The notes below the pieces were generated by a model. That model was not told the origin of the DNA and searched no databases. It was given only the letters and a program-made list of their open reading frames with translations. From the NCBI GenBank assembly GCA_944322965.1, contig CALUQR010000006.1, positions 38,456-102,455 on the forward strand: 64,000 nucleotides of DNA. The letters run 5' to 3'. This document shows positions 3,382 through 52,180 of the stretch, piece by piece. The stretch is from Vulcanimicrobiota bacterium (GTDB lineage: Bacteria; Vulcanimicrobiota; Xenobia; Xenobiales; Xenobiaceae). Each line of letters begins with the position of its first letter. Position 1 is the stretch's first letter. Made by a program: the position numbers and the translations under genes.

Positions 3382-5007
3382 ATGACTGCCAATTTTGCCC
3401 CCGTTAGTCCCGGTTATTGGACCCCTACTTTAGAATCCGCCCCCCTAGCGCCCAGCGCCGCGCTGCGCTCCTTAAAGAGCCCCCTCTTCGTCGTCGCCCC
3501 TCCCAGCGGCGAGCCTTACGCGCTCTACACTTCTGGCCAAGCTTATTTTGGGCCCCAGCCGCCCGCCCAGGGCCTGCCCCTCTTGGCCTACGCCCCCCCG
3601 CTCAGCCCCCAAAATTTAGGCTCCGCCTCCTTTAAAAGAGAGTACGGTTTAAAGTACGCCTGTTTGAGCGGCTCTATGGCCAATGGCATCGCCTCCGAGA
3701 GCTTAGTTATCGCCATGGCCCGGGCGGGTATGCTGGGCTTTTTCGGTTCGGCCGGCCTGTGGCCCGAAGAGGTCAGCCGCCACATCCACTCCCTGCGCTC
3801 CCAGTTGGGGAACTTGCCTTTCGGCTGCAATTTGATCCATAGCCCCTCCGATCCCCAGTTAGAGATGGCCACCGCCCAGCTCTTTATAGAACAAGGGGTC
3901 ACCCTTCTGGAGGCTTCCGCCTATTTGGGCCTCACCCCCGCCCTCTTAGCCTACCGTTATAAGGGGTTGCGCCGCCAGAGCGACGGTTCTCTCTACGCCC
4001 CCCACCGCCTCTTGGCCAAAGTCTCGCGCTTAGAAGTGGCCCGCAAGTTCCTCTCCCCGCCGCCCCCCGAGATGATCTCCGCCCTCGTCGAGCAGGGCCT
4101 TTTAACCCCCGCAGAGGGCCAATTGGCTTCCCTCCTCCCTCCGGCCTCGGGCTTAACCGCCGAAGCCGATAGCGGCGGCCATACCGATAACCGCCCCGCC
4201 TTAGGTCTCCTGCCCTCCATCTTAGAATTGCGCAACCAAATCCAAAAAGAGTACGGCTGGACGGTCCCCGTAGGCTTAGCGGGCGGGATCGCCGTCCCCC
4301 AAGCGGCCGCGGCCGCCTTTATGATGGGCGCCGCCTACGTCATGACCGGCTCCATCAACCAGGCCTGCTTAGAGTCCGGTTCTAGCCCCGTGGTGCGGGA
4401 GATGTTAGCTAAGGCTACCCCCGCCGACGTCACTATGGCCCCGGCTGCCGATATGTTTGAGATGGGCGTCAACGTCCAAGTCCTCAAGTGGGGCACGATG
4501 TTCCCAGTGCGAGCCAAAAAGCTCTATGAGGTCTACCGCAGCTACCCCAACTGGGAGGCGGTTCCAGCTAACCTACAGAGTCAGATTGAGCGCGAGATCT
4601 TGCGCTCTACCTTCGCCCAGGCCTGGGAGTCGACTAAAGCCTTCTTCACTAAGCGCGACCCCCGCCAGATAGAGCGAGCCCAGCGCGATCCCAAGCATCT
4701 GATGGCTTTAGTCTTCCGCTCTTACTTAGGTCAGGCCTCGCGCTGGGCCAATAGCGGCCTCCCCGAGCGGCGCGCCGATTACCAGATCTGGTGCGGTCCG
4801 GCCATGGGAAGTTTTAACGAGTGGACTAAAGGAACATTCCTGGAGGACGTAAAAGAGCGCCACGCCGATTTGGCGGCCCTCAACATCCTCGTTGGGGCCT
4901 GTGTAGAGCTGCGAGCCGCTCTCTTGAATAACCAGGGGATCGAGCTCCCCGCCCACTGGAGCCATTACGCGCCCCTACCTTACTCACAACTAGCCACGTA
5001 TTTATAG
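3382..5007 (+). CDS. pfaD: PfaD-family trans-2-enoyl reductase (NPD/FMN enoyl-ACP reductase of PUFA/secondary-lipid synthases)
   Basis: The FKREYGLKYACLSGSMANGIASESLVIAMARAGMLGFFG block is diagnostic of PfaD/ORF-C-type ER. The gene ends 10 bp upstream of the PKS subunit. Confidence 0.85.
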   Translation: MTANFAPVSPGYWTPTLESAPLAPSAALRSLKSPLFVVAPPSGEPYALYTSGQAYFGPQPPAQGLPLLAYAPPLSPQNLGSASFKREYGLKYACLSGSMANGIASESLVIAMARAGMLGFFGSAGLWPEEVSRHIHSLRSQLGNLPFGCNLIHSPSDPQLEMATAQLFIEQGVTLLEASAYLGLTPALLAYRYKGLRRQSDGSLYAPHRLLAKVSRLEVARKFLSPPPPEMISALVEQGLLTPAEGQLASLLPPASGLTAEADSGGHTDNRPALGLLPSILELRNQIQKEYGWTVPVGLAGGIAVPQAAAAAFMMGAAYVMTGSINQACLESGSSPVVREMLAKATPADVTMAPAADMFEMGVNVQVLKWGTMFPVRAKKLYEVYRSYPNWEAVPANLQSQIEREILRSTFAQAWESTKAFFTKRDPRQIERAQRDPKHLMALVFRSYLGQASRWANSGLPERRADYQIWCGPAMGSFNEWTKGTFLEDVKERHADLAALNILVGACVELRAALLNNQGIELPAHWSHYAPLPYSQLATYL

Positions 5008-5017
5008 GAGTCTCATC

Positions 5018-8000
5018 TTGTCTTCTAAATCCCATTCTCCCCACAACACCCCCATCGCCATTATTGGTCTGGGCTGCCTCTTCCCCAAAGGGGGGAGTAA
5101 ACAGGGCTTTTGGCGCGTCTTGCGCACCGGGGCTAACTGTATCGAGCCCGTCCCGGAGACTCACTGGTCCGTCAACGACCTTTACGATGGCGACCACGCC
5201 AGCCCCGATCGCTGCTACGCCAAGGTGGGCGGTTTTTTAGAGCCCTATCCCTTCGATCCTACGGAGTTCAATATCCCTCCTAACGTCTTGGAGGCCACCG
5301 ATACTTCGCAACTTTTGGGCTTAGTGGGAGCTAAGGCGGCTTTAGAAGACGCCGGTTACGGTCCGCAGGGGAAAGAGTTGCCCAAAGATCGCACGGGCGT
5401 CATCTTGGGGGTTACGGGCGCTCTGGAGATGGTAGTACCCTTGGGGGCGCGGTTAGGCCACCCTCGTTGGCGCAAAGCTCTGGCCGAAGCGGGGATCGAC
5501 CGCCAGACCTGCGAGAAGATCGTAGCCCAGATTTCCGACTCTTACGTCTCCTGGCAAGAGAACTCTTTCCCCGGCCTCTTGGGGAACGTGGTGGCCGGGC
5601 GCATCGCCAACCGTTTAGACCTGCACGGTACTAACTGCACCGTCGACGCGGCCTGCGCTAGCTCCCTAGCCGCCGTCCATCTGGCTATCAACGAATTACA
5701 AGCCGGCCAAGCGGATATGGTCCTCACCGGCGGCGTGGACACCTTCAATGACATCTTCATGTTCACGTGCTTCTCCAAGACCCCGGCCCTCTCCGATTCC
5801 GGCCGCATCGCCCCCTTCTCAGCCGACGCCGACGGCACCCTCTTAGGGGAAGGGGTGGGCATCTTCGTCCTCAAGCGCTTAGCCGACGCCGAGCGCGATC
5901 AAGATAAGATCTACGCCGTCATTAGAGGCATGGGTTCCTCCTCCGACGGCAACTCGGGCTCTATCTACGCCCCCAGCGCCCCCGGCCAAGCTATCGCCCT
6001 GCGCCGGGCCTACGAGGCGGCCCACATCGATCCCCAAACGGTCGATATGGTAGAGGCCCACGGTACGGGGACTAAGGTGGGAGATATTGTCGAATTCAAC
6101 TCTCTGCGCGAGGTCTTTAAGGAGCGCCAGCCCTCCGACTCCTGCGCTTTGGGAACGGTCAAATCGCAGATTGGCCACACCAAGGCGGCGGCGGGAGCGG
6201 CCAGTTTAGCCAAGACGGCCCTGGCCCTCTTCTATAAGGTCTTACCCCCCACCCTCAATATTAGCGCCCCCCATCCTAAGCTCAACTTAAGGGAGACGCC
6301 CTTCTACCTCAACATCGATACTCGCCCCTGGCTCAGTTCCCAGCATCCGCGCCGGGCGGGGGTCTCCTCCTTTGGCTTTGGCGGCAGCAACTTCCATATC
6401 GTCTTAGAGGAGTACTCTCCCAAGCGCACCCAGCCCGCCTGGGACGGTTCCTGCCAGATCTGGGCCTTCAGCGCCCCCAGCCGTCCGGAGTTAGCGGCGG
6501 CCGTACGCCAAGCCTCCCAAGTTCCGCCCTACGAGAGCGCCTACTGGGCCCAAGAGTCGCGCCGCTCCTTCCAGGCTTCCGCCCCCTTCCGGGCTACCTT
6601 AGTCTGCGGCCCTAACGACTCGCAGGAGAAGTTAGCCGAATTGGCTCAAGCTTTAGAAGAGGAGTCGACCCTGCCCGCCAACGCCTTCTACGGTGAAGGC
6701 GAGATCGAGCGCGGTCAGATAGCCTTCCTCTTCCCCGGTCAGGGCAGTCAGTATGTGGGCATGGGCCGCGACCTCTTCTCTATCTTCCCCGAGGCCTTCG
6801 CCTCCTTAGAGAAGGCCCACCAGCTCTTAGATCCCTCCCAGGATCCGGCCGCCTTCATCTTCCCCATCTCCCACTTCGACCCTCAAGAGGCTACTAGCTG
6901 GAATCAGGCTCTGACCGCTACCCAAGTGGCCCAGCCCTCCTTAGGGACTATCGAATCCTCTATGGCTCGCGTCTTAGAGAGCTTTGGCTTAAAGCCTCAG
7001 GCTTTGGCCGGCCACTCCTACGGCGAGTTAGTAGCCTTAGAGCGGGCGGGGGTCTACTCTCAGAGCGAGCTCTTCCGCCTCTCCGCTCTGCGCGGTTCCT
7101 TGATGGCCGCCGGCGACGGCGGGCGCGGGGCCATGTCCGCCCTCTCCGCTCCTTTGGCCAAGATCGAGGCCTTAGTGGCAGAGGTGGGCGGCGAGTTAGT
7201 CTTAGCTAACCGCAACCACCCCACCCAAGGGGTCATCTCCGGTCCTAAGGAGGCTATCGACCAGGCGGAGGCCCTCTGCAAAGAGCGCAAGATTACCGCC
7301 CACCGCCTCCAAGTTTCGGCCGCTTTCCACAGCTCCTTAATGGCTAGCGCCCGCCAGCCCTTCGGAGAGGCTCTGGCCGCCTTAGAGCTCAAGGCGCCCC
7401 AAGTGCCCGTCTATGCCAATATCTCCGCCCAGCCCTATCCGCAGAGCCCGGAGGAGATCGCCAATACTTTGGGCGACCAGTTGGTGAGCTCGGTGCGCTT
7501 TATTGAGATTATCGAAAATATGTACCAGGCGGGCTTCCGCACCTTCATCGAGGTGGGTCCCAAGACGGTCCTCACCGGCCTCGTCAAGAAGATCTTGGGG
7601 CAGCGCCCCCACTACCTGATCTCTACCGACGGCCGCAAGGGCGGGGCCGAGCTCCAGGGTATCGCCCTGACTTTGGCTCAACTCTCCGCTCTGGGCGCCC
7701 CTCTCAAGTTGAGCGCCTGGGAGGCCCCCGTCTCCAAGCCGCGCGCTAAACGCATGGTAATCCCCATTAGCGGCGCCAATTACCGGACCCCCAATAAGAA
7801 GGCCCCCGCCCCTTATTGCGATCCTAAAGAGCCCGTCGAAGGTTACCAGCCCTTACACTTTGTGAGCGATAACCCGCCCGTCTTGCCAGCGCCCGCCCCT
7901 CAGCCCTTAGAGGAGGTCACTTTAGAGACGGCTGCGGCTAATGAGCCTTTGCCTCCCCTCCCCAAGGTAGCCCCTCCGGCCATCCCCGTGCCGCCCGCGC

Positions 8001-11000
8001 CCGCCCCTGGCCCGCAAGAGGGTCCGATCCCGGAGCGCATCCCGGCTCCCGCCGCCCCGGCGGCCGCGCCTAAGCTTCCAGCCCAGCTCCAGGTTCCGGC
8101 CCCCGTCAGCAGCCACGCGGCGCCCATTATGGCCCAGGCTTTGCAGACTATCCAACAAGGGTTAGCCGCTCTGCAGGCCCTCCAGGCCCAGACGGCCGCC
8201 GCTCACTTGCAATTCTTGCAAAGTCAGGCCCAGATCCAGAGCTCGCTGCAAGCGATTATTGCCGCTCAGCAGAACTTAGCGGGCGCCCAGTTAGGCCAGG
8301 CTCCCTTGAGCCGCCCCTTAACCGTAAGCGCTCCGCCCCTGGCCCAGGCCGCATTTCCCTCCGTGGCCCCGACCCCTTGGCCTCAAGCCCCGGCTTTCCC
8401 CAGCCCCTCCCTGCCGGTAGGCGCCCCGCTACCTACCCAGGCCCCCGCCCCGGAGTTGACCTCTACCCCCTTGCCCCCTGAGCCCGTAGCCCCCAGCGCC
8501 CCTAAAGCTGCGCCTACTCCGGCCCCCGCTCCCCAGGCGGTCCCTAGCCCCGCAGTTGCGACGGGAGCCGCTTTGAGCCCAGCCGAGATCCAGCAGAAGA
8601 TCTTAGCTACCGTAGCTCAGATGACGGGTTATCCCCTGGAGATGCTCAATTTAGATATGAGTTTAGAGGGCGACTTAGGGATCGACTCTATTAAGCGAGT
8701 GGAGATTCTCTCCGCTCTGCACAAAGAGTTGCCCCAGGTGAGCGAGATCGCCCCCGAGGAGATCGGCTCTTTACAGACCTTGCGCCAAGTGGCCCAGCGT
8801 TTACAGAGTAAGATCGGCACCCTCAGCGCTCCCGCCCAGACCGCTCCGACGGCTGAAGCTCCCGCCCTGTCCGCAGCCGCTCCTAGCGAGGCGGCCCCCG
8901 TAGACGCCGCCCAGCGCCTCTTAGAGGTCGTCTCCCAGGCTACCGGTTATCCTCAGGAGACGCTCAACTTGGATATGGACTTAGAGAGCGACCTGGGCAT
9001 CGACTCCATTAAGAGGGTGGAGATCCTGGCCGCTATGCAAAAGGTCTTCCCCCAGGCTCAGGAGTTAGCTCCCGAAGAGCTCAATAGCTTGCGCACCTTG
9101 CGCCAGATCGTGGAAAAATTGGCCCCCGCCCAGAAAGCTACGGCCAGCGCCGCTCCCGCCGCAACGACCGCTCCCAGCGAGACGGTGGCTAGCGCGGCGC
9201 CTCCCGCAGCCCACTTAGATCCCGCGGAGGCCGTCTTGGAGGTCGTAGCCCAGACCACGGGTTACCCTCTGGAGACCCTCAACTTAGATATGGACTTAGA
9301 GAGCGACCTGGGGATCGACTCTATTAAGAGGGTAGAGATCCTGGCCACCTTGCAGAAGCTCCTGCCCGGCAGCGCGGCCCACTTAGATTCGGAGAGTCTC
9401 AGCAACTTGCACACCTTGCGCGATATTGCCCAAGCTCTGCAAGCTAGCGCCCCCTCCGCTCCGGTGGCCGCTCCCGCCCAGGCCGCCTCTCCTAGCGACG
9501 CTCTGGCCTTAGTCTTAGAGGTCATCGCCCAAGCTACGGGCTATCCCTTAGAGACGCTCAGCCCGGAGATGGACTTAGAGAGCGATTTAGGGATCGACTC
9601 TATTAAGAGGGTCGAGATCTTAGCTACCTTACAAAAGGTCCTGCCTAAGGCGGGCGAGATCGCCCCCGAGGAGCTCAATAGTTTGCGCACTATTGGCGAT
9701 ATTGTGCGCGCCTTATCGGGCGAAGACGGCCCCCAGCCCCCGCAGCCCGGTCCCGCTCCTCAAGGTCCCAGATCCGACTCCACCTCTGACTCTGACTCTA
9801 CCTCTCAGGCTGCGCCTCAAGCGGAGGAGGCACCCGTCCCTAGTCCCGCTCCCGCTGAGAATGCGGCCCCTGCGGAATCGGCCGCGCCCGCTGAGACTGC
9901 GGCGCCCACCGATGCGGTAGCCCCGGTAGCGGAGACGGACGCCCTCCCTTTTGAAGTAGAGGAGCTGGGGGGAGCTCCCGCCGATCGCCTCTTACGTCGG
10001 GTCCTCAGCTACGAGTTGGCTCCCAATCCGCTGCGCGGTCGCCAGCTCGATAAGCGCGGCCTCTACCTGCTCTTAGACGACGGCTTTATCGCCCCCGCCT
10101 TAGCCCCCGTCTTAACTAGGCAAGGGCTCCAGGTAGAGTTAGTCGATCTCGCCCAGGCTTCCGATCCTCAGTATCTGGCCGCCCTGCCTGCGGTTAGCGC
10201 CCTCTTCTTGACCTTGCCCTCCCAGGCGCCCCAACGGGAAGAGGAGATCTTCTTCCAGCGTTCCGCCGCCGCGGAGAATCTCAAAGAGCGCTTCCGCTTG
10301 GCCCGCAGTCTGGCCCAGACCTGGGCCCTGCAGCGGCGTCAGCCTAGCTTAATAGTTACGATTACCCGCTTAGACGGTCAATTTGGAACGAGCGGTCAGC
10401 CCTGCGATCCTTTGGCCGCCGGGCTACACGGCTTGACTAGGGTCTTAGCTCAGGAGTATCCGCACACCGTCTGTCGCTCCTTCGACCTCCATCCCCAGCT
10501 GACGGCGACCGAGGCGGCGGGCCAGTTAGTGCGCGAGTTACAGTCGGAAGGCAGCAACGAAGTGGGCCTCTCCCCCCAGGGGAGGCGCATCCCCGTCTTG
10601 CGCGAGGAGCCCTTAGACTTTACTAACTTACACCTCTTGCCCCCTCACTCGACCATCTTAGTTACGGGGGGCGCGCGCGGGGTCACCGCCCAGTGCGTCA
10701 AGTTATTGGCTAAGCTCTGCCGCCCCAACTTCGTCTTGGTGGGGCGCTCCGCCGTCCCCACGCCGGAGTCTTCCCTCACTACCGGAGCTACCAACGCCCG
10801 CGACTTAAAGTCCCTCATCTTCAAACAGGCTAAAGAGGGTGGGCGCAGCCTCTCCCCCCAGCAGTTGGAGAAAGAGTGTCAGCGCATCTTAGCTAATCGG
10901 GAGATCACGAAGACTATCGCCGAGGTCCGCTCTTACGGTTCTCGGGTCAATTACGTCTCCATGGACGTCCGCGACGACGAGTTGGCCCAGATGATCGTCC

Positions 11001-12436
11001 GCGACGCCCACGAGCGCTTTGGTCCCATCGTAGGCCTCATTCACGGGGCGGGCGTCTTAGCCGACCGCTTAGTTGTAGATAAGACGGACGAACAGTTCGA
11101 CCGCGTCTTCGATACTAAGGTCACCGGCCTCTACAACTTCTACCAGGCCTTACAGGATGAACCCCTGCAGTTCGTCTACTCCTTCTCTTCCGTCTCCGCC
11201 CGCTTCGGTCGTCCGGGCCAGTGCGATTATGCCATGGCCAACGAGGTGATGAATAAGTTTACCTACCTGGCCTCCCACTTCCGCCCCGAGGTGCGCTTTG
11301 GCGCTTTAGGGTGGGGTCCTTGGGACGGCGGGATGGTCGACCGCAACTTGCGCCAGCAGTTCGATAAGTTGGGAATCGAGCTCATCGACTACCGGCGCGG
11401 CGCCCAGAGTTTAGTCGCCGAGATCTTGGCCGGTCCCCAAAATGAGCATGAACTCATCTTTGGCAAAGGCTTTGACGCGCCCCAAGAGAGTTATCCCTCC
11501 CCGGAGGAGACCCCCGGCGCCGAGACCGCTCCCCCAACTAGCGCCCCAACGGAGCCCGAGTTAGACGTCCACACCCCTTACCAGACGCCCCTCACCTTAA
11601 AGGAGTACCCCCTCTTAGAAGATCACGTCTTTAATGGCAACTCCGTAGTGCCCTTGGCCCTTATGGTAGAGATCGTAGCTCAGGCCTGCCAGCGTTACTT
11701 CCCCCACTACCATTTCCGGGGCTGCGACAACTTGCGCATCTTAAAGCCCGTCACCCTCCCCCACGGCGAGACCCCCCAAGAGTTATTGGCCGATAGCTCT
11801 CTGAGCGTCAATATCGTAGACATTAAGGAGCAGTCGGGCCTCTTGCAGGTCAACTTCTACTTAGATCACCACCTGCCCGGCGAGAAGACGGAGCGCTGCG
11901 CCGCGGGTACGGCCCTTTTGAGCGCCGAGGTGCGCCATCAGCCCGCCGACTCTAGCCGCCTGCCCCACATCCAGGAGCGGGATTATCCCCTCTCCACCCA
12001 GGAGGCCTACCAGCGTTACCTCTTCCACGGCCCCAGCTTGCAAGCCATCCGCAAGGTCAAATCTTGCAGCGACCAGGGCTTATTGGCCAAGGTAGCGGCC
12101 CCCAAGGGCGAGCGCGCCCCCTTAGCCTGCGGTAAACAGACGATTACCCATCCCCTCTTCTTAGACGGAGCCTTGCAGAGTGGACTCTTCTGGACTGGCG
12201 CTCAGCGCCACATGTGCTCCCTGCCCATGTTCGGCGGCCGCTACCGCCAGTACGTGCGCGAGTTCCCGGAGGAGGCTAAGATCTTGCTCTATCCCAAGGA
12301 GATCTCCAAAAACCAGATGTGCGGAGACATCTTCTTAGTCGATAAGCGCGGTATCCTGGCCGAGTGGCGCGACGTGCGCTGGATTATGACCCCCGAGTTA
12401 GCTCAGTCCTTCCGCCACAATAAGTTGGGCCAATAG
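5018..12436 (+). CDS. pfaA: PfaA-like multidomain PKS subunit: KS (Cys codon 5654-5656), malonyl-CoA:ACP transacylase (GQGSQ ~6740, GHSYGE 7009-7026), Pro/Ala-rich linker, four tandem ACPs (LGIDSIKRVEIL x4), KR (TGGARGV ~10660), PKS-type DH (HxxxGxxxxP ~11620)
   Basis: Domain motifs read directly from the translation. The architecture matches PfaA/Pfa2 of PUFA synthases. Confidence 0.9.
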   Translation: MSSKSHSPHNTPIAIIGLGCLFPKGGSKQGFWRVLRTGANCIEPVPETHWSVNDLYDGDHASPDRCYAKVGGFLEPYPFDPTEFNIPPNVLEATDTSQLLGLVGAKAALEDAGYGPQGKELPKDRTGVILGVTGALEMVVPLGARLGHPRWRKALAEAGIDRQTCEKIVAQISDSYVSWQENSFPGLLGNVVAGRIANRLDLHGTNCTVDAACASSLAAVHLAINELQAGQADMVLTGGVDTFNDIFMFTCFSKTPALSDSGRIAPFSADADGTLLGEGVGIFVLKRLADAERDQDKIYAVIRGMGSSSDGNSGSIYAPSAPGQAIALRRAYEAAHIDPQTVDMVEAHGTGTKVGDIVEFNSLREVFKERQPSDSCALGTVKSQIGHTKAAAGAASLAKTALALFYKVLPPTLNISAPHPKLNLRETPFYLNIDTRPWLSSQHPRRAGVSSFGFGGSNFHIVLEEYSPKRTQPAWDGSCQIWAFSAPSRPELAAAVRQASQVPPYESAYWAQESRRSFQASAPFRATLVCGPNDSQEKLAELAQALEEESTLPANAFYGEGEIERGQIAFLFPGQGSQYVGMGRDLFSIFPEAFASLEKAHQLLDPSQDPAAFIFPISHFDPQEATSWNQALTATQVAQPSLGTIESSMARVLESFGLKPQALAGHSYGELVALERAGVYSQSELFRLSALRGSLMAAGDGGRGAMSALSAPLAKIEALVAEVGGELVLANRNHPTQGVISGPKEAIDQAEALCKERKITAHRLQVSAAFHSSLMASARQPFGEALAALELKAPQVPVYANISAQPYPQSPEEIANTLGDQLVSSVRFIEIIENMYQAGFRTFIEVGPKTVLTGLVKKILGQRPHYLISTDGRKGGAELQGIALTLAQLSALGAPLKLSAWEAPVSKPRAKRMVIPISGANYRTPNKKAPAPYCDPKEPVEGYQPLHFVSDNPPVLPAPAPQPLEEVTLETAAANEPLPPLPKVAPPAIPVPPAPAPGPQEGPIPERIPAPAAPAAAPKLPAQLQVPAPVSSHAAPIMAQALQTIQQGLAALQALQAQTAAAHLQFLQSQAQIQSSLQAIIAAQQNLAGAQLGQAPLSRPLTVSAPPLAQAAFPSVAPTPWPQAPAFPSPSLPVGAPLPTQAPAPELTSTPLPPEPVAPSAPKAAPTPAPAPQAVPSPAVATGAALSPAEIQQKILATVAQMTGYPLEMLNLDMSLEGDLGIDSIKRVEILSALHKELPQVSEIAPEEIGSLQTLRQVAQRLQSKIGTLSAPAQTAPTAEAPALSAAAPSEAAPVDAAQRLLEVVSQATGYPQETLNLDMDLESDLGIDSIKRVEILAAMQKVFPQAQELAPEELNSLRTLRQIVEKLAPAQKATASAAPAATTAPSETVASAAPPAAHLDPAEAVLEVVAQTTGYPLETLNLDMDLESDLGIDSIKRVEILATLQKLLPGSAAHLDSESLSNLHTLRDIAQALQASAPSAPVAAPAQAASPSDALALVLEVIAQATGYPLETLSPEMDLESDLGIDSIKRVEILATLQKVLPKAGEIAPEELNSLRTIGDIVRALSGEDGPQPPQPGPAPQGPRSDSTSDSDSTSQAAPQAEEAPVPSPAPAENAAPAESAAPAETAAPTDAVAPVAETDALPFEVEELGGAPADRLLRRVLSYELAPNPLRGRQLDKRGLYLLLDDGFIAPALAPVLTRQGLQVELVDLAQASDPQYLAALPAVSALFLTLPSQAPQREEEIFFQRSAAAENLKERFRLARSLAQTWALQRRQPSLIVTITRLDGQFGTSGQPCDPLAAGLHGLTRVLAQEYPHTVCRSFDLHPQLTATEAAGQLVRELQSEGSNEVGLSPQGRRIPVLREEPLDFTNLHLLPPHSTILVTGGARGVTAQCVKLLAKLCRPNFVLVGRSAVPTPESSLTTGATNARDLKSLIFKQAKEGGRSLSPQQLEKECQRILANREITKTIAEVRSYGSRVNYVSMDVRDDELAQMIVRDAHERFGPIVGLIHGAGVLADRLVVDKTDEQFDRVFDTKVTGLYNFYQALQDEPLQFVYSFSSVSARFGRPGQCDYAMANEVMNKFTYLASHFRPEVRFGALGWGPWDGGMVDRNLRQQFDKLGIELIDYRRGAQSLVAEILAGPQNEHELIFGKGFDAPQESYPSPEETPGAETAPPTSAPTEPELDVHTPYQTPLTLKEYPLLEDHVFNGNSVVPLALMVEIVAQACQRYFPHYHFRGCDNLRILKPVTLPHGETPQELLADSSLSVNIVDIKEQSGLLQVNFYLDHHLPGEKTERCAAGTALLSAEVRHQPADSSRLPHIQERDYPLSTQEAYQRYLFHGPSLQAIRKVKSCSDQGLLAKVAAPKGERAPLACGKQTITHPLFLDGALQSGLFWTGAQRHMCSLPMFGGRYRQYVREFPEEAKILLYPKEISKNQMCGDIFLVDKRGILAEWRDVRWIMTPELAQSFRHNKLGQ
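8570..9720 (+). repeat. Four tandem ~300-bp coding repeats (the ACP domains) inside pfaA, with near-identical cores (gacttagggatcgactctattaagagggtggagatc).
   Basis: The repeated GIDSIKRVEIL blocks are visible at the nucleotide level at about 8671, 8990, 9303 and 9581. Confidence 0.85.
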
Positions 12437-12457
12437 TGAGCGCTCTAGTTAGCGCAG

Positions 12458-12508
12458 TGGCTGCCCCTCTAGGAGCTCGCTCCTAGAGGGGCAGCCATAC
12501 CCTTTTTT
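12458..12508 (+). terminator. Strong GC hairpin (tggctgcccctctagga / tcctagaggggcagcca) followed by a T-tract, between pfaA and the next PKS gene. It could be an intrinsic terminator or attenuator.
   Basis: A perfect 17-bp inverted repeat followed by cccttttttaa. Confidence 0.55.
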
Positions 12509-12541
12509 AAGACCCCAGACATTTTTTAGGGTGAAAACGAA

Positions 12542-15500
12542 ATGAGAGAGTATCAAGATAGAGCGGCCATCGCCATCGTAGGTTTAGGTCTCCACTTCCC
12601 CGGAGCCCACAATGTAGAGGAGTACTGGCAGCGCCTGCTGGAAGGGCGCGATCTATCCCAAGACTCTCCGCCCGGCCGCTGGCCCGAGTATATCCACCAG
12701 CGCCTGAGCTCTACCTTCCAGCCCGATACTTTGCGCAATAAGCGGGGCTACTACCTCGATACTATCCCGACTCCGGCCTCCTTGGGCTTGCCTGAGGGGA
12801 TAGACCCTCTCTTCTGCCTGGCCTTAGCTACCGCCCGCCAGACTATTATTTCTCAGACCGCCCTCCCCTTAGAGGAGACGGGGCTCATTATGGCCTCCAT
12901 CGCCCTCCCCACCGACACCACCTCCAACTTAAGTTGGGAAGTCTTAGGGGGCGACTTCTTAAAGAGGCTGCGCACCCTCTGGCCCCAGGATAGGCCCTGC
13001 CCGCTCCCCGCAGCTAATCCCCAACTCCCTCCCGCCGCTCCCTACAACGTGGCGGCCGTAGGTCTCCCCGCCCAGCTGGTAGCCGCTCAACTCCATTTAG
13101 GTCTGGGGGGCTACACCTTAGACGCGGCCTGCGCCTCCTCGCTGGTAGCTATCGAATTGGCCTGTCGAGAGCTCTTAGCCGGTCGGGCCCAAGCTATGTT
13201 GGCGGGCGGACTCTCTCGCCCCGATTCCCTCTACACCCAGATGGGCTTCTCCGCCCTGCGAGCCCTTTCGCCCAGCGGTCTGTGCGCCCCCTTCGATAAG
13301 CGGGCCGACGGTTTGATGGTGGGCGAAGGCTGCGGTTTAGTCTTACTCAAGACCTTAGAGCGCGCCCAAGCCGATGGAGACCATATCTACGCTATTATTC
13401 GCGGGGCGGGGATCTCCAATGACCTCCAGGGCAACTTATTGGCCCCCTCCAGCGAGGGCCAACTGCGCTGCCTGCGCCAAGCCTACCAGAGCTGCCATTT
13501 AGAGCCTTGGCAGGTGGAACTGATCGAGTGTCACGGCACGGGCACTCCAGTAGGCGATAAGGTGGAATTAGAGAGCTTGCGCCAACTGTGGGAGGGGGCT
13601 CCGGCCCAGAAGTTGTGCCAGTTGCGCTCCGTCAAGGCCATGGTAGGCCACCTCTTGACGGCCGCCGGGGCCGCCGGCCTCATTCGCACCGTCCTCAACT
13701 TAGAGAAAGGACAGATTACCCCCCAAGTCAATTTCCAAGAGTCGGCCTGGGATTTAGAGTCTACCCCCTTCCGCATTTCTAGCCAGCTCCAAGAGTGGCC
13801 CCAGGTAGGCCCAGAGCCCCGGCGAGCGGCGGTCAGCGGCTTTGGCTTTGGCGGTATCAACGCCCACCTCATCTTAGAGGAGTACCGCTCCCCCGCCGCA
13901 GAGCTTACCCCCCTCCCGACGATCGCCGCGAACGCCGCCCCCTCCCCCGCCGCAGATGAAGAAGAGCCGGTAGCTATCGTCGGCTTGGCCTGCCATTTAG
14001 GGCCTTTAGAGAATTTAGACTCCTTCCAACGGGCCCTCTTCCAGGGCTTAGAGCTGAGCGAGCCCCTTCCCCCCCAGCGTTGGCAGGGGATAGAGGGTCC
14101 CAGCGCGGGCGGCAATTATATCGACAAATTCTCCTTCCCGTTGGGTCGCTTCCGCATTCCGCCCGCCGACTTAGATTCCATCCTGCCCCAACAGTCGGCC
14201 CTCTTGACCTGCGCCGCCCAGGCCCTCTTAGATGCGGGCGAGCCTCTGCGCCAGGTACGCCAGCGGGCGGGGGCCTTTATCGGTATCGCCCTCGATCCCA
14301 ATACGACCAACTTTAATTTGCGCTGGAACCTGCCCCCCTTAGTAGCCCAGTGGGCTAAGGAGCTGGGTTTAAGCCCCGCCGAAGAGGAAGAGTGGTTAGA
14401 TAAGCTCCAAGAGGATATCTCCGCCCCCTTAGACGCTACTAGGACTTTAGGGGCCTTGGGGAGTATCGCCGCTAGCCGCGTAGCCCGCGAGTTCCAATTT
14501 GGCGGTTCCTCCTTTAGCCTCTCCGCCCAGGAGCTCTCCGGTCTGGAGGCCTTAAAGTTGGGCTTAGACTCCCTGCGCGCCGGCCATTTAGACCTGGTCT
14601 TAGTGGGGGCTATCGACCTCCAGGGCGATATTCGCCAGGCCTTAACCCACCTCAGCCCTCAAGAGCAGGGCTTAGATAGCGAGGAGCCCTTATACTCTGA
14701 GGGGGTCTGCACCTTAGTCTTAAAGCGCCTCAGCGAAGCCCAAGCGGCAGGGGACCGCATCTACGCCGTCTTGCGCGGGGTAGGTCTAAGCCAAGGGGAA
14801 CTCTCCAAAGCCTGCGCCCAGAGTTGGTCTAAGCCCCAGAATTTGAGCTACTTAGAGTTAGCTAACTCCCTGTGGCTGGAAGAGTCCTCCACCTTAGCCC
14901 CCCAGCTTTTGAACTTATTTAAGGAGGGCCAGCGCCCCTTAGCCGTGGGCAGTTTAGAGCGCTTAATCGGGCAGACGGGTTGTGTCAGCGCCTTAGCCTC
15001 CGTCTTAAAGAGCGCCCTCTGCCTCTACCGCCACGCCCTACCCGCTACTCCCAACTTTACCCGCCCGTTGGCCGAGCCCCAATTGTGGCAGGATAGTCGC
15101 CTCTTTGCGCCCCGCCAGAGCGCTTACTGGTACCGCAATAGAGCCCAAGGGAAGCGCCAAGCGGGCGTCTTAGCTAGAGCCTATCCCGACCATTATGGCG
15201 CCGCCCTCTTAGAGGAGGTGGAAGAGTCCCCCGCGGAGGCTAAAGCCCTCTCCTCGCTCCTCCCTCCCAGCGCCTTAGTAGTCGTAGCGGCCGGCCCCGA
15301 GCCCGCAGCCATCACCCAGCGGCTGAGCGCCCTCTTGGCGGAATTAGAGAACCTCCCGGCCTCGGAGCTCACCCCCGCCCAGCAGCGCCAGACTTTGGCG
15401 GCCCTCAGCCTGCAGTGGTATCGAGAGAGCGATCTCCAAGCCCCCTTGGCGGCGGCTATCGTCCTCAATTTAGAAGTCGAGAATCCCCTCCAAGACCTCA

Positions 15501-18500
15501 AGCGCGACTTAGAGTTGGCCTTACAACATGTGAGCGAGCGCCCTCAGGAGAGTTTAGAGCGGGGCAATATCTACTATCACCCCCAGCCTCTGGCCGCCCA
15601 AGGGAAAGTGGCCTTCGTCTATCCCGGCTCCGGAGCTAACTTCTTAGGTTTGGGCAGAGAGTTGGCCCTGCGCTTCCCGGCCCAGATGGAGGCCTTAGAT
15701 AGTCGCCAAAAGTACTTGGCCGACGAGTTTATGGCGCGCTGGAATCAGCCGTACGCCCTAGATTGGAGCGAGGGTTGGCAACATCGCGCTTGGGAGCGTC
15801 TGAGCGCCGATACCCACCAGATGATGTTCTCCCAGGTCAGTTTCGCCATGCTCTCTACGGCCGTCGTACGCCACTTGGGGATCGAGCCCCAAGCGGCCAT
15901 CGGCTACAGCTTAGGGGAGTCGGCGGCCCTCTTCTCTTTAGGCGCCTGGCCCGATCCCGATCTGATGTACGAGCGCATGCAAAGTTCCGAGCTCTTTAGG
16001 AAGGATCTCTCCGGTCCCTGCCGCTCCGCCCGCCAGGCCTGGCAGATCCCAGCTGAGGAGCCCTTCACCTGGGTAGTGGGCCTCTTGCGCCTGCCCGCCC
16101 CCCAAGTTAGCGCCGCTATGGAGGGGATCGAGCGTATCCGCCTCTTAATCGTCAATACCGATACAGAATGCGTAGTGGGCGGCGTCCCCCAGGCCTTAGA
16201 GGAGCTCTGTCGCCGCTTGCATACCCAAGCTATTACCGTGAGCGGAGTCGATACCGTCCATTGCGACTGCTTAGCCCCCGTAGCCCGCCAGTATTGGGAG
16301 ATGCACCATCTGCCTTGTACCCCTCCGCCCGGTATCGATTTCTATAGCGCCTACTTCCAAAAGGCCTACCCCCTCACCTCGGAGGCCATAGCCGACTCTA
16401 TCGCCGGCCACGGCCAGCACGGCTTCAACTATCCCGCCACTATCCGCCAAGCCTGGGCGGACGGGGTGCGCCTCTTCTTAGAGATGGGTCCGGGCGCCTC
16501 TTGTACGCGCATGATCCGCAGTATCTTGAGAGACGAGCCCCACGCGGCCTACAGCTTGAGCGTCCGCAACCAGAATGAGGCCCTCTCCTTGGCCCACTTC
16601 CTGGCCGCCGTCTTGAGTCAGGGCCTGCGCCCCAACTTAGTAGAACTCTGGGGCCAGCTGGAGAGCGCTCCAGCCGCTACCCCCAGTAAGGACCTGCGCT
16701 TAGGGAGAGCCCCTTACGCCCCCGCCTTACCTAAGTTCCCGACGCTAACCCAGAGCGCTCCCGCCCTGTCCGAGGAGCTTACTCCCGCCCCCGAGGCTGC
16801 GCCCCCCGCCGCGCCCAATTTCCCGGCCCAACCTATAGCCCCGGCGCCCGCTCTCTCTACCCCCGCCCCGGCCCCTCAGTCGGCCCCGACGCCCCAATTG
16901 GCCGCAGTTCCCACCTCTACTTTCAACCCCCATCCTTGGGTCCAGCTCTTACAGGAGGGCGGCCAATGGGAGGAGAGTTTGCACCGCCAGTGGTTGGCCT
17001 TTACCCAGCAATCGGCCCAAGGGTGGGCGGAGATCGTCAACCGGCAGAGCCAGTTAGTGGCCGCCCTCCAGGGTCAAGGTTACGCCCTCGCCGCGCCCCT
17101 CCCCTTGGAGTCCCTTCCCTTAGAACCTCAGGCCCAAGTTCAGATCCAACCTCAGCCCCAGGCCCAAGTTCAGGTCCAAGTTCAAAGCCCGACTCAGGGT
17201 CAGGAGTTCCCGCCCTTAGAGTCGCGTTCCGCTTATCTGCCCATGTTGGCCGGGCGCCAGATCCTCCATCCGGGCGCTTACGCCTACGGTCCTAAGCCCA
17301 GTCTGGCTCCGCCCTCCTTGTCCCTCTTCCTCGATCGCGACCAGTGTTTAGAGTTTGCGGTGGGGAAGATCGGTCAGGTCTTAGGGCCTAAATTCGCCCC
17401 CATCGACTCCTACTCTACTCGCGTGCGCCTGCCAGCTGAGCCGCTCATGTTGGTGGATCGCATCTTAGAGGTGGAGGGGGAGCCTCTCTCCTTAGGCTCG
17501 GGCCGGGTGGTCACTGAGCACGACGTCTTAGAGGGGATCTGGTACTTAGACGGGGGCCGGGCTCCGGTCTTTATCTCCGTCGAGGCCGGTCAGGCCGATC
17601 TCTTCCTCTGCAGTTGGTTAGGTATCGACTTTAAGGCTCAGGGGCAGCGCGTCTACCGGCTCTTAGACGCCCAAGTGACCTTCCATCGCGGCTTGCCCCA
17701 GCCCGGGGAGACGATCCGCTACGATATTCGCATCCGCCATTTCCTCAACCAAGGCGCGACTTGGCTCTTCTTCTTTGAGTACGATAGTTATATAGGCGAC
17801 CAGCCCTTCTCTACCATGCGCAATGGCTGCGCCGGGTTCTTTACCTACGCCGAGATCGAGAATAATGGCGGGCTCATCTTGAGCGCCGACCGCGATCGCC
17901 CCGCCCCCGGGAAGTGCGATCCTAACTACCGGCCCTTACTCCCGCTGCAGGCTGAGAGCTATGGAGAAGAGGTAGTAGAGGCCTTGCGCCAGGGCCGCTT
18001 AGAGGCCTTAGGGGCGCCCTTTGCCAATTTGGCCTTAAAGGATCCGGTGCGCTTGCCCGACGGGCTCTTGGCCCTCATCCATCGGATCCCCGAGTGCGAT
18101 CCCCAAGGCGGCCGTTGGGGCTTAGGACGCGTCGTCGGCGAGGCCGACGTCCATCCTCAGGATTGGTACTTAGTCTGCCATTTCTGCGACGATATGGTTA
18201 TGCCCGGGACCTTGATGTACGACTGCTGCTCCCAGGCCCTGCGCTTCCTCTTGACCCGCTTAGGGTGGGTGGGCGAGCGCCAAAAGGTGGCTTACGAGCC
18301 GGTACCCGGTTGTAAGGTGACCCTCAAGTGTCGCGGTCCGGTCTTAGCGACCACTAAGACGGTGCGCTACCAGATCGAGATCAAAGAGCTGGGCTACAAT
18401 CCCACCCCTTACGTCATTGCCGAAGCGGTGATGTACGCCGACGGGAAGCCTATCGTAGGCTTTGAGGATATGTCCCTCCAGCTGAGCGGCTTAGATCGAG

Positions 18501-19690
18501 AGTACTTAGAGGGGCTCTGGCAAGTGGCTGAGCACTCGCTCCACCGGGGCGATCCCCCTAAAAAGGCCGTCTTTACCGAAGAGCAGCTCCTCGAATTGGC
18601 GACGGGGTTACCCTCTAAGGCCTTAGGTCCGGAATTTGCTCCCTTCGATGGGCGCTTCTTAGCGCGCTTACCCGGCCCGCCCTACCAGTTCTTGAGTCGC
18701 ATTACCCAGGTCGACCAGCCCTACTTAGACCCCACGCCCGGAGGCTGGGTAGAGGCTCAATATGATATTCCCCCGCAGGCCTGGTACTTTGCGGCCAATC
18801 GCACTGGGAATATGCCCTACTGCGTCTTAAATGAGATCGCCCTCCAGGCTTGCGGCTGGGTCTCGTCCTACGTAGGCGGCTCGCGCTATACCCAAGAGCC
18901 GCTCTATTATCGCAATCTGGGCGGTCAGGCTACCCTCTATCGGGAGATTACCCCCCAGATGGGTACGCTCACTATCCGGGTTCGACTCACTAAGTCGGCT
19001 CAGGCGGGCGGGCTCATTATCCACGACTTCCAAATGTGGATGGGCCAGCTGGGTGAGACTATCTACGAAGGGACGACCCACTTTGGCTTCTTTACCGCCT
19101 CCGCTCTGGCCAACCAAGTGGGAGTGCGCGGCGGCCGGCAGAAGATCTGGCAGCCCGACCAGCCCCTACCCTTCCGACCCTTAGAGCGCACCGCGCCCTT
19201 AGACCCCGCCGACAGCCACTCCTCACCCCACGCCCCCCTCTCCCTGCCCAGTCGGGCCCTCCTGATGTTAGACGAGTGGGCTTGGTACCCCCAAGGCGGC
19301 TGGAAAGGACTGGGGGCGGTCGTAGCTCGCAAGCAGGTCGATCCTAGCGACTGGTTCTTTAAGGCCCATTTCTATCAAGATCCGGTCATACCCGGCTCTT
19401 TAGGCTTGGAGTCCTGCCTAGAAGCCCTCAAAGCGGCGGCCCTAGAGATCTGGCCCCAGTATCGGGAGAGCCACACCTTCTCGGCTATCCTTCTGGAGAG
19501 ACCGCACCGCTGGCTCTACCGCGGCCAAATTATCCCCCGCAACTGCGAGACGACCGTCCACCTCTCCCTAACCGAACGCGGCTCAGACGAACGCCCCTAC
19601 CTCAAAGGCGACTGCCTCGTCTGCGCCGACGGCACACCCATATACGAACTCCAAGACTTCGGGGTTTCTTTAGATGTCGTACTTACATAA
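12542..19690 (+). CDS. pfaC: PfaC-like subunit with embedded acyltransferase: KS (Cys codon 13130-13132), chain-length-factor KS-like domain (Cys replaced, ~13965-15100), AT (GYSLGES, Ser codon 15908-15910), Gln/Pro-rich linker, and two FabA-like dehydratase/isomerase double-hotdog modules (His codons 18179-18181 and 19367-19369)
   Basis: Motifs DAACASS, then GGSSFSLSAQE (no Cys), GxSxG, then HFCDDMVMPG and HFYQDPVIPG. There is no C-terminal acyltransferase (AGPAT) domain. Confidence 0.88.
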   Translation: MREYQDRAAIAIVGLGLHFPGAHNVEEYWQRLLEGRDLSQDSPPGRWPEYIHQRLSSTFQPDTLRNKRGYYLDTIPTPASLGLPEGIDPLFCLALATARQTIISQTALPLEETGLIMASIALPTDTTSNLSWEVLGGDFLKRLRTLWPQDRPCPLPAANPQLPPAAPYNVAAVGLPAQLVAAQLHLGLGGYTLDAACASSLVAIELACRELLAGRAQAMLAGGLSRPDSLYTQMGFSALRALSPSGLCAPFDKRADGLMVGEGCGLVLLKTLERAQADGDHIYAIIRGAGISNDLQGNLLAPSSEGQLRCLRQAYQSCHLEPWQVELIECHGTGTPVGDKVELESLRQLWEGAPAQKLCQLRSVKAMVGHLLTAAGAAGLIRTVLNLEKGQITPQVNFQESAWDLESTPFRISSQLQEWPQVGPEPRRAAVSGFGFGGINAHLILEEYRSPAAELTPLPTIAANAAPSPAADEEEPVAIVGLACHLGPLENLDSFQRALFQGLELSEPLPPQRWQGIEGPSAGGNYIDKFSFPLGRFRIPPADLDSILPQQSALLTCAAQALLDAGEPLRQVRQRAGAFIGIALDPNTTNFNLRWNLPPLVAQWAKELGLSPAEEEEWLDKLQEDISAPLDATRTLGALGSIAASRVAREFQFGGSSFSLSAQELSGLEALKLGLDSLRAGHLDLVLVGAIDLQGDIRQALTHLSPQEQGLDSEEPLYSEGVCTLVLKRLSEAQAAGDRIYAVLRGVGLSQGELSKACAQSWSKPQNLSYLELANSLWLEESSTLAPQLLNLFKEGQRPLAVGSLERLIGQTGCVSALASVLKSALCLYRHALPATPNFTRPLAEPQLWQDSRLFAPRQSAYWYRNRAQGKRQAGVLARAYPDHYGAALLEEVEESPAEAKALSSLLPPSALVVVAAGPEPAAITQRLSALLAELENLPASELTPAQQRQTLAALSLQWYRESDLQAPLAAAIVLNLEVENPLQDLKRDLELALQHVSERPQESLERGNIYYHPQPLAAQGKVAFVYPGSGANFLGLGRELALRFPAQMEALDSRQKYLADEFMARWNQPYALDWSEGWQHRAWERLSADTHQMMFSQVSFAMLSTAVVRHLGIEPQAAIGYSLGESAALFSLGAWPDPDLMYERMQSSELFRKDLSGPCRSARQAWQIPAEEPFTWVVGLLRLPAPQVSAAMEGIERIRLLIVNTDTECVVGGVPQALEELCRRLHTQAITVSGVDTVHCDCLAPVARQYWEMHHLPCTPPPGIDFYSAYFQKAYPLTSEAIADSIAGHGQHGFNYPATIRQAWADGVRLFLEMGPGASCTRMIRSILRDEPHAAYSLSVRNQNEALSLAHFLAAVLSQGLRPNLVELWGQLESAPAATPSKDLRLGRAPYAPALPKFPTLTQSAPALSEELTPAPEAAPPAAPNFPAQPIAPAPALSTPAPAPQSAPTPQLAAVPTSTFNPHPWVQLLQEGGQWEESLHRQWLAFTQQSAQGWAEIVNRQSQLVAALQGQGYALAAPLPLESLPLEPQAQVQIQPQPQAQVQVQVQSPTQGQEFPPLESRSAYLPMLAGRQILHPGAYAYGPKPSLAPPSLSLFLDRDQCLEFAVGKIGQVLGPKFAPIDSYSTRVRLPAEPLMLVDRILEVEGEPLSLGSGRVVTEHDVLEGIWYLDGGRAPVFISVEAGQADLFLCSWLGIDFKAQGQRVYRLLDAQVTFHRGLPQPGETIRYDIRIRHFLNQGATWLFFFEYDSYIGDQPFSTMRNGCAGFFTYAEIENNGGLILSADRDRPAPGKCDPNYRPLLPLQAESYGEEVVEALRQGRLEALGAPFANLALKDPVRLPDGLLALIHRIPECDPQGGRWGLGRVVGEADVHPQDWYLVCHFCDDMVMPGTLMYDCCSQALRFLLTRLGWVGERQKVAYEPVPGCKVTLKCRGPVLATTKTVRYQIEIKELGYNPTPYVIAEAVMYADGKPIVGFEDMSLQLSGLDREYLEGLWQVAEHSLHRGDPPKKAVFTEEQLLELATGLPSKALGPEFAPFDGRFLARLPGPPYQFLSRITQVDQPYLDPTPGGWVEAQYDIPPQAWYFAANRTGNMPYCVLNEIALQACGWVSSYVGGSRYTQEPLYYRNLGGQATLYREITPQMGTLTIRVRLTKSAQAGGLIIHDFQMWMGQLGETIYEGTTHFGFFTASALANQVGVRGGRQKIWQPDQPLPFRPLERTAPLDPADSHSSPHAPLSLPSRALLMLDEWAWYPQGGWKGLGAVVARKQVDPSDWFFKAHFYQDPVIPGSLGLESCLEALKAAALEIWPQYRESHTFSAILLERPHRWLYRGQIIPRNCETTVHLSLTERGSDERPYLKGDCLVCADGTPIYELQDFGVSLDVVLT

Positions 19691-19735: not shown

Positions 19736-19757
19736 TTAAGCTAATTCGGAATTAGGC
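19736..19757. repeat. Solo copy of the TAAGCTAATTCGGAATTAGG motif shared with the terminal repeats of the MITE-like element. It overlaps the stop codon of the cysteine desulfurase gene.
   Basis: taagctaattcggaat is identical at 19736 and 36830. Confidence 0.5.
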
Positions 19758-21059: not shown

Positions 21060-21074
21060 AATTGCGTTCCTAAG

Positions 21075-22547: not shown

Positions 22548-22559
22548 CTCTCTCGCTCC

Positions 22560-24935: not shown

Positions 24936-24956
24936 CCTCCCTTAAAGCCTGCTTAG

Positions 24957-29156: not shown

Positions 29157-29162
29157 GGGGGG

Positions 29163-31592: not shown

Positions 31593-31638
31593 GGGACCTG
31601 GTACACATGACGAGGCATGCTTAATATATCATCAAGTT

Positions 31639-49629: not shown

Positions 49630-49656
49630 TCTCCTCCCGAACTGGTAAAAGCTATC

Positions 49657-52124: not shown

Positions 52125-52180
52125 TCTACTATTTACTTATCCCCCCAGACGCCAAACCCAGACCCGCAAAAAGAAAAAGT

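Follow-up and report, generated by a model that had tools for sequence, protein, structure and literature searches.

A chromosomal Pfa-type secondary-lipid synthase cluster with a Type I-like layout in an uncultured Xenobia-like bacterium

We analysed a stretch of 64,000 nt (hereafter the window) from contig CALUQR010000006.1 of assembly GCA_944322965.1, deposited as a Vulcanimicrobiota bacterium, with a focus on three adjacent genes that resemble the pfa genes for synthases of polyunsaturated fatty acids (PUFA). In the list of ORFs these genes lie on the + strand at exactly 3382–5007, 5018–12436 and 12542–19690, and their reading frames are intact over 16.3 kb. They specify, in this order, an enoyl reductase (ER; PfaD), a PfaA-like protein composed of a ketosynthase (KS), a malonyl-CoA:ACP transacylase (MAT), four acyl carrier protein (ACP) domains, a ketoreductase (KR) and a dehydratase (DH), and a PfaBC-like protein composed of a KS plus a chain-length factor (CLF), an acyltransferase (AT) and two FabA-type DH domains. 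An initial annotation, made from the sequence alone, had described a secondary-lipid cluster of this order and domain content between 3382 and 19690, and annotation with Pfam and NCBIfam models bore this out. Thus, by its domain content the cluster is a Pfa-type (PUFA-synthase-like) secondary-lipid synthase, with the domain order as first described. The PfaD and PfaA proteins scored above the cutoffs of curated models, whilst the PfaB and PfaC parts of the third protein found their best matches in PfaB and PfaC models or solved structures. The cluster is chromosomal and belongs to an uncultured Xenobia-like bacterium.

The first gene (3382–5007) encodes a 541 aa protein predicted to act as an FMN-dependent, trans-acting ER; it matched TIGR02814 (pfaD_fam) with 588 bits (cutoff 449) and the solved PfaD structures 6lkc and 4yx6 with 525 and 512 bits, respectively, and Pfam recognized the NMO and FabD_helical_ins domains within it. 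The second gene (5018–12436) begins with a TTG start codon and specifies a PfaA-like protein of 2472 aa, which scored 1498 bits against TIGR02813 (PfaA; cutoff 1010); the same gene was also called in six metagenome contigs of the same species. Its KS (aa 11–415; 5048–6262) was identified by ketoacyl-synt and Ketoacyl-synt_C, and the motifs DAACAS, HGTGT and GHTKAAAG contribute the predicted active-site residues Cys213, His348 and His387. The MAT follows at aa 570–860 (6725–7597), where Acyl_transf_1 (138.9 bits) and TIGR00128 fabD (203.6 bits) both match and a GHSYG motif carries Ser667. An Ala/Pro-rich linker of about 290 aa (aa 900–1190), in which no Pfam match was found, precedes four tandem ACPs at about aa 1190–1570 (8585–9727; PP-binding in four stretches, 139 bits). 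Each ACP carries DLGIDSIKRVEIL (a DSL-type Ser motif), with the phosphopantetheine-attachment residues at Ser1224, Ser1330, Ser1435 and Ser1528. The protein is completed by a KR at aa 1879–2103 (10652–11326; Pfam KR, 116.5 bits, together with adh_short) and a polyketide synthase (PKS)-type DH at aa 2187–2463 (11576–12406; PKS_DH_N and PS-DH), in which His2203 lies within an HxxxGxxxxP motif. In one of the same-species contigs (L006, 11637–19017) pfaA was called as two ORFs of 1139 and 1273 aa, with the break in the linker/ACP repeats; this may represent a frameshift, a strain variant or misassembly of the repeats. A 2 aa indel in the same region of pfaA was seen among the other same-species contigs.

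The third gene (12542–19690) encodes a 2382 aa PfaBC-like fusion for which Pfam and NCBIfam gave the order KS–CLF–AT–(DH′–DH)–(DH′–DH). Its N-terminal ∼830 residues (aa 10–829) matched the KS–CLF structure of Moritella PfaC (6riw) with 320 bits. The PfaC-type KS occupies aa 9–398 (12566–13735) and retains Cys197 and His331, as identified from Pfam and motif matches. A second KS-like domain at aa 475–839 (13964–15058; ketoacyl-synt, 89 bits on the segment) aligns with it such that SAQELS stands opposite DAACAS and ESSTL opposite HGTGT; as the Cys and His motifs are replaced, we regard this domain as a CLF. The AT at about aa 1025–1332 (15614–16537) has a GYSLGE motif with Ser1123 and, although weakly matched by Acyl_transf_1, aligned over its catalytic Ser motif with PfaB of S. 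baltica (9ry8, 82.8 bits), its closest solved match. This PfaB-like acyltransferase is fused into the PfaC-like subunit, as the initial annotation had proposed. Two DH/isomerase units make up the remainder, and in each of them the FabA-type hotdog comes after a weaker FabA-like pseudo-domain. In the first unit (17429–18457) the pseudo-domain (aa 1630–1750, 19 bits on the segment) is followed by a FabA domain at aa 1838–1972 (105.8 bits on the segment) with the motif HFCDDMVMPG and His1880; in the second (aa 2060–2370; 18719–19651) Pfam FabA matched two stretches with 122.4 bits, the C-terminal of which (aa 2235–2370) carries HFYQDPVIPG and His2276. The domain search thus placed both a CLF and two FabA domains in the third protein. 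Taken over the whole cluster, every expected catalytic motif is present and intact, namely the Cys/His sets of two KS domains, the MAT Ser, four ACP Ser residues, the PKS-type DH His, the AT Ser and two FabA His residues; the CLF is without them, as expected. This complete set of catalytic motifs makes it probable that the synthase is functional.

The initial annotation had also noted that the last protein ends right after its second FabA-like hotdog, leaving no room for a 1-acylglycerol-3-phosphate acyltransferase (AGPAT) domain, and this proved accurate: the stop codon lies 12 residues past the last FabA domain (aa 2382), and Pfam found no match to PF01553 in the protein. The Pfa3-like protein of Azospirillum lipoferum 4B served as a positive control and gave a PF01553 match; its cluster on plasmid AZO_p1 was our AGPAT-bearing reference of the myxobacterial type and encodes an ER of 535 aa, a PfaA-like protein of 1755 aa and a KS–CLF–AT–FabA protein of 2756 aa with PF01553 at aa 2479–2621. 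No remnant of an AGPAT was found 3′ of the third gene, where the next gene is convergent. Amongst 8000 candidates scored, 7911 were homologous to the third protein at E ≤ 1 × 10−20, and in none of the best 120 of these (2267–2544 aa) was PF01553 detected. Since the best 120 homologues all do without an AGPAT, its absence is ancestral in this lineage rather than a loss.

These observations bear on the type to which the cluster belongs. Shulse & Allen defined 20 types of pfa-like cluster (PMC3098273). Among them, a pfaBC fusion is present in Type I (Geobacter, Pelobacter, Desulfuromonas and Gemmata), Type J is described as a pfaD–pfaA fragment of a Type I-like cluster, and in Type L (Sorangium, Streptomyces and others) pfaD comes first and Pfa3 bears an additional acyltransferase at its C terminus (PMC3098273). 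In Geobacter bemidjiensis the order is pfaD, pfaA, pfa(B)C, oleABCD and pfaE, and a C31:9 polyolefin is made (PMC4882568; PMC3098273). The AGPAT is regarded as a unique feature of myxobacterial synthases, with Azospirillum among the relatives of the myxobacterial clusters (PMC8436480).

We constructed a neighbour-joining tree of PfaC-type KS domains (437 columns, 200 bootstraps), in which the window grouped with nine Xenobia/UBP9 loci at 100 % support, as the deepest branch within this clade. The Xenobia clade in turn joined sequences from Geobacteraceae, Gemmataceae, Planctomycetes, Riflebacteria, Elusimicrobia, Gemmatimonadota and Desulfobacterales at 95 %, with the branching inside this larger group not resolved. 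Outside it fell the Azospirillum AGPAT cluster, PfaC of Moritella (Type B), Persicobacter and the Streptomyces plasmid clusters. For the PfaA KS, identity to the window was 64–65 % in Planctomycetes/Eremiobacterota, 61 % in Oryzomonas, 57 % in Azospirillum, 54–56 % in Streptomyces and 50 % in Persicobacter. Two Streptomyces plasmid clusters were considered as Type L references and rejected, that of Streptomyces sp. 2P-4 (L089) for its split pfaA and last-placed pfaD, and that of S. albogriseolus (L090), which is unannotated. As such, we file the cluster as Type I-like and not as a truncated myxobacterial type, an assignment made from sequence against stand-in references and within a 95 % super-clade that also includes Type C-like sequences.

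Could the cluster nevertheless be a Type L pfa1–pfa2–pfa3 set that secondarily lost its C-terminal AGPAT? Its gene order is the same as that of pfa1–pfa2–pfa3 in Aetherobacter and Minicystis, and the myxobacterial pfaE is likewise unlinked (PMC8436480). Set against this are the exclusion of the AGPAT-bearing Azospirillum reference from the 95 % clade to which the window belongs, the lower PfaA-KS identity to Azospirillum than to the Type I-like lineages (57 % versus 61–65 %), the lack of an AGPAT in the best 120 homologues, and the want of any remnant between the stop codon and the convergent gene; hence we judge such a loss to be highly improbable. The comparison that the initial annotation had drawn with the myxobacterial pfa1–pfa2–pfa3 layout therefore stands for the gene order and falls for the notion of a myxobacterial cluster minus its AGPAT, the order being instead that of Type I. 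It had further allowed for a well-characterized type with a known product; the type has indeed been described, but its product, a precursor of C31:9 polyolefin, has been proposed rather than proven.

A synthase of this kind depends on a phosphopantetheinyl transferase (PPTase), and the initial annotation had found no pfaE-type PPTase within the 64 kb. In agreement with this, a Pfam search of all non-nested window ORFs of ≥ 60 aa gave no PF01648 PPTase, and a six-frame scan of the window revealed no W/F-x-x-KE-A/S PPTase motif. Similarly, same-species contigs, whose Pfam annotation reaches 10 kb beyond the left end of the window and 6.6 kb beyond its right end, showed no PPTase there, and neither did the inspected flanks of the three-gene loci of relatives. 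Two unannotated window ORFs of 194 and 221 aa were considered as candidates and rejected, as they resemble secreted or coiled-coil proteins. In myxobacteria pfaE lies at a separate locus (PMC8436480), and pfaE-type PPTases are unlinked in several known systems (PMC8436480; PMC13291983). Given that the inspected relatives have no PPTase in their flanks and that the myxobacterial pfaE is unlinked, the missing PPTase is not an anomaly.

Between pfaA and pfaBC there is a gap of 105 nt, in which a terminator scan found a perfect 19 bp GC-rich hairpin followed by a T-run (12457–12498, + strand). The RNA fold of the gap (12437–12541) had an energy of −53.6 kcal/mol (z = −6.6). The hairpin is kept in 6/6 same-species contigs; in relatives the corresponding gap measures only about 40 nt. 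By its form it may resemble an intrinsic terminator, an attenuator or an mRNA-stabilizing element, and it may modulate the ratio of PfaA to PfaBC transcript.

With respect to composition, Leu is encoded most often by TTA in the three pfa genes (205 of 662 Leu codons) despite a GC content at third codon positions (GC3) of 0.73–0.75, in line with the remark of the initial annotation on the use of TTA. A similar share of TTA, at a GC3 of about 0.74, was seen in the housekeeping genes at 48346–58275 of the window (ClpX, ClpP, trigger factor and others), and CTT and CTA hardly occur. This is an unusual, genome-wide codon bias; because the codon usage of the cluster, including the preference for TTA, matches that of the housekeeping genes, the cluster is compositionally native and not a recent foreign insert.

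The exact ER protein was found on 63 metagenome contigs (up to 267 kb), and six same-species contigs carry the cluster at 99–100 % identity with uninterrupted ORFs. The closest named matches to the ClpX protein of the window came from Candidatus Eremiobacterota, Candidatus Xenobia and Candidatus Xenobium (72–74 %), whilst the Pfa proteins were nearest to those of Candidatus Bruticola at 55–70 % (Xenobiaceae, Xenobia, Vulcanimicrobiota in the NCBI taxonomy). As species representatives, the closest were metagenome-assembled genomes (MAGs) from Hadza gut, the rumen MAG RUG807, UBP9_UBA4705 and Ca. Bruticola, with identities of 62–64 % for the KS and 68–70 % for the ER. The host is thus an uncultured Xenobia-like bacterium of the Eremiobacterota/Vulcanimicrobiota, most likely host-associated and probably gut-dwelling, and it appears to represent a deeper branch than the sampled gut genera. 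It is non-marine, as the initial annotation had supposed; its nearest relatives are gut and rumen MAGs.

The same ER–PfaA–PfaBC order, again with no AGPAT, was found in nine Xenobia/UBP9 loci, and beyond these in one MAG each of Eremiobacterota, Gemmatimonadota and Elusimicrobia, in two Planctomycetes, in Oryzomonas (Geobacteraceae) and in one further genome. Across the Xenobia clade the cluster has been kept at 54–70 % protein identity, which implies purifying selection. Two features were seen beside the genes in some of these loci. Directly 5′ of pfaD, a LytB/IspH-family gene is present in a Planctomycetia locus (L009, 604–1590) and in L010 (689–1612), and is absent from that position in the window. 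After pfaBC, seven gut Xenobia/UBP9 loci share a conserved protein of 270–300 aa with Gly-rich, membrane-like segments and a Pro/His-rich tail (L007, 17672–18502; L011, 17360–18262; equivalent positions in L013, L014, L015, L016 and L020), which has no Pfam match and no homologue in the window. This protein was considered as an enzyme and rejected as such, being a low-complexity membrane protein. In the searchable literature, neither Pfa synthases nor PUFA were found reported for Xenobia, UBP9 or Bruticola.

It might be argued that the cluster is silent or in decay, a relic that gives no active product, in view of the missing nearby PPTase, the terminator-like hairpin ahead of pfaBC and the split pfaA of contig L006. 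Opposed to this are three frames that are intact over their full 16.3 kb with all catalytic motifs conserved, clade-wide conservation at a level that speaks of purifying selection, and same-species contigs that are 99–100 % identical, so that we regard decay as very unlikely.

On this evidence the three genes are likely to specify a complete and iterative Pfa-type synthase that is probably functional, arranged in the Type I layout of Shulse & Allen (pfaD–pfaA–pfaBC). Several points weigh against this interpretation. The AT domain scored 93.9 bits against TIGR02816 (pfaB_fam), which is under the cutoff of 144.3. With no PPTase in about 80 kb, activation of the ACPs is assumed, and the strong hairpin between pfaA and pfaBC could uncouple expression of the third gene. 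As regards the type, a tree of the PfaA KS, the typing marker of Shulse & Allen, leaves the attachment of the Xenobia clade unplaced; moreover, an Oryzomonas MAG, Gemmataceae MAGs and the Azospirillum plasmid stood in for the type strains of Geobacter, Gemmata, Shewanella and Sorangium. Finally, we know of no lipid data for any Xenobia organism.

From the domain set and from characterized Pfa synthases, a mode of action can be proposed. The four ACPs would first have to receive phosphopantetheine from a PPTase whose gene we infer to lie elsewhere in the genome, and the MAT of PfaA would load malonyl units onto these ACPs. The KS of PfaA and the PfaC-type KS–CLF pair would then extend the chain by two carbons per round, with the KR reducing each β-keto group. 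Dehydration would fall to the PKS-type DH and the two FabA-type dehydratase/isomerases; in some cycles a trans-2 to cis-3 isomerization would allow the cis double bond to be kept, whilst in others the trans-acting PfaD reductase would saturate the trans-2 enoyl intermediate. PfaB has recently been shown to be the terminal, product-determining acyltransferase (PMC12895367), and the internal PfaB-like AT would off-load the finished chain as the terminal acyltransferase. Such a pathway would be independent of oxygen, which suits an anaerobic gut organism.

A methylene-interrupted polyunsaturated acyl chain is what the synthase most likely makes. A very different outcome would be a saturated, mono-unsaturated or hydroxylated very-long-chain secondary lipid, akin to the alkyl chains of heterocyst glycolipids or phenolic lipids. 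It is true that most pfa-like clusters are without a proven product and that non-PUFA chains are made by some characterized ones, of Types F and P (PMC3098273; PMC13291983), and more than 92 % of metagenomic pfaA KS domains fall outside product-linked clades (bioRxiv 10.1101/2023.01.09.523365). The heterocyst-glycolipid Type F, however, has no FabA-type dehydratase/isomerase (PMC3098273), whereas the window has two with intact His motifs; furthermore, PUFA-producing synthases have the identical domain set, and tailoring genes for a type III PKS, glycosyltransferase, reductase or aminotransferase are not linked to the cluster. A class-V aminotransferase at 19757–20863 was considered as a tailoring enzyme and rejected, since this SspA/DndA-like cysteine desulfurase is encoded on the opposite strand and adjoins a BREX island. 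With the FabA domains intact and no tailoring genes linked, a non-PUFA product is the less likely one, and we hold it to be improbable.

A polyunsaturated chain need not itself be the end product. For Type I clusters in Geobacter and Planctomycetes, a role in supplying polyolefin precursors has been proposed, and the synthase described here may likewise serve mainly to supply a medium-chain polyunsaturated acyl chain (e.g. 16:4n-3) that unlinked OleABCD proteins condense head-to-head to a very-long-chain polyolefin (e.g. the C31:9 hentriacontanonaene). In seven related loci (L010, L018, L023, L025, L027, L028 and L034, the last from Oryzomonas) oleA-, oleB- and oleC-like genes lie directly 3′ of pfaBC, with ole-like domains (ACP_syn_III/thiolase, alpha/beta hydrolase and AMP-binding) confirmed in L034 only; because such genes adjoin pfaBC there, the published link between Type I clusters and head-to-head olefins gains support. 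The tandem of pfaD–A–BC, oleABCD and pfaE in G. bemidjiensis, which makes C31:9 (PMC4882568; PMC3098273), points the same way, and ole genes can be unlinked from pfa genes (Shulse & Allen; PMC3098273). For the window itself the evidence runs in the other direction: no ole-like gene was found in it, in the 10 kb to its left or in the 6.6 kb to its right; ole genes follow pfaBC in 0/9 of the Xenobia/UBP9 loci, 7/9 of which have the Gly-rich membrane protein there instead; and the Xenobia clade forms a branch with 100 % support separate from the ole-linked lineages. An olefin fate for the chain is thus possible, though we think it the lesser prospect. The initial annotation was right to hold that the product cannot be read from the sequence: either a PUFA of membrane lipids or an olefin precursor for unlinked ole genes could be made, and the sequence does not tell the two apart.

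The architecture and type of the cluster are already known, having been described in 2011, and are very common in public data. What is mildly new is the host, in that a distinct and well-supported Pfa clade is found in host-associated Xenobia, a lineage without a cultured member. The Xenobia/UBP9 relatives derive from Hadza gut, from the baboon-named Ca. Bruticola papionis and from rumen MAGs. A more speculative suggestion, which we offer with considerable reserve, is that the Xenobia/UBP9 lineage has its own vertically inherited Pfa clade with no linked ole genes, and makes long-chain PUFAs (EPA-, DHA- or ARA-like), or a new polyunsaturated lipid, anaerobically in mammalian guts. If this were true, it would constitute a previously unrecognized bacterial source of gut PUFA that is independent of oxygen. 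Should the synthase be active, a gut commensal would possess an anaerobic route to polyunsaturated lipids, one of relevance to membrane adaptation, to protection from oxidative stress and possibly to the exposure of the host to such lipids. Moreover, a compact cluster of three genes and 16.3 kb is tractable for heterologous expression, and could serve to assign a product to the large, uncharacterized Type I-like family.

The surroundings of the cluster were also annotated. Upstream of the pfaD-like gene lie genes for TsaD, a metallophosphoesterase and a haloacid dehalogenase (HAD) phosphatase; the latter two were considered as tailoring enzymes and rejected, as no locus of the Xenobia clade encodes a homologue of any of the three 5′ of its ER gene. 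Directly downstream, a type-4-like BREX defence island occupies 19757–36753 on the − strand. It comprises the SspA/DndA-like cysteine desulfurase (19757–20863), which is convergent with pfaBC, BrxL (21075–22547), PglZ (22560–24935), BrxC/PglY (24957–29156) and the PAPS-reductase protein BrxP (29163–31592). Next to these lies an ORF of 1704 aa (31639–36753) that has no Pfam or PADLOC match; the GC content falls to 0.43 around 30–32 kb. Beyond the island, two tandem genes on the + strand (37257–39020 and 39208–40929) encode paralogous proteins in which RTX calcium-binding repeats occur together with a Peptidase_M91 effector-like domain; these proteins may be secreted effectors or toxins. A tRNA array on the − strand at 52049–52450 comprises two Gly-GCC genes, Leu-TAG and Lys-CTT; an ORF of 122 aa on the + strand (52048–52416) was rejected as a gene, being the antisense of this array. 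Furthermore, a stand-alone PlsC-type acyltransferase (PF01553, 114 bits) overlaps the cytidylate kinase gene cmk by 8 nt (58321–58995 and 58988–59716, both −). It lies 39 kb from the pfa cluster and represents, as a housekeeping protein, the AGPAT activity that is absent as a domain from the Pfa3-like protein.

When set beside known systems, the cluster shares its catalytic domain set with the marine gammaproteobacterial pfaABCDE clusters of Types A and B (Shewanella, EPA; Moritella, DHA); its PfaD matches solved PfaD structures, its KS–CLF that of Moritella PfaC and its AT that of S. baltica PfaB. Unlike these, it has pfaD first and not last, PfaB fused into PfaC and pfaE unlinked, and the KS of Moritella PfaC was the most distant Pfa sequence in the PfaC-KS tree. 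With Type C (Desulfatibacillum alkenivorans and related Desulfobacterales) it has in common a pfaBC fusion of KS–CLF–AT–DH2 and membership of the same 95 % KS super-clade, but in Type C pfaD is at the 3′ end of the cluster (PMC3098273), and the Desulfobacterales loci that we fetched, in contrast to the window, have neither an ER nor PfaA directly 5′ of pfaBC. The myxobacterial Type L clusters (Aetherobacter, Minicystis and Sorangium) show the same order of ER, KS–MAT–ACPn–KR–DH and KS–CLF–AT–DH2, and their PPTase is also found at a separate locus (PMC8436480); the window differs from them in having no AGPAT, and the Azospirillum AGPAT reference stands outside its clade. With Type I (Geobacter and Gemmata obscuriglobus) the window shares the progression from pfaD to pfaA to a pfaBC fusion (KS–CLF–AT–DH2) with no AGPAT, in the order seen in G. 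bemidjiensis and Oryzomonas (L034), a PfaC-type KS that groups with representatives of the Geobacteraceae and Gemmataceae at 95 %, and hosts that are anaerobic or non-marine. It departs from the Type I cluster of G. bemidjiensis in that oleABCD and pfaE are not adjacent, and from Type I in general in that the Xenobia clade is a separate, deep branch with about 39–46 % full-length identity to the Oryzomonas and Planctomycete proteins, whilst both the host phylum and the gut-associated habitat are new for Type I.

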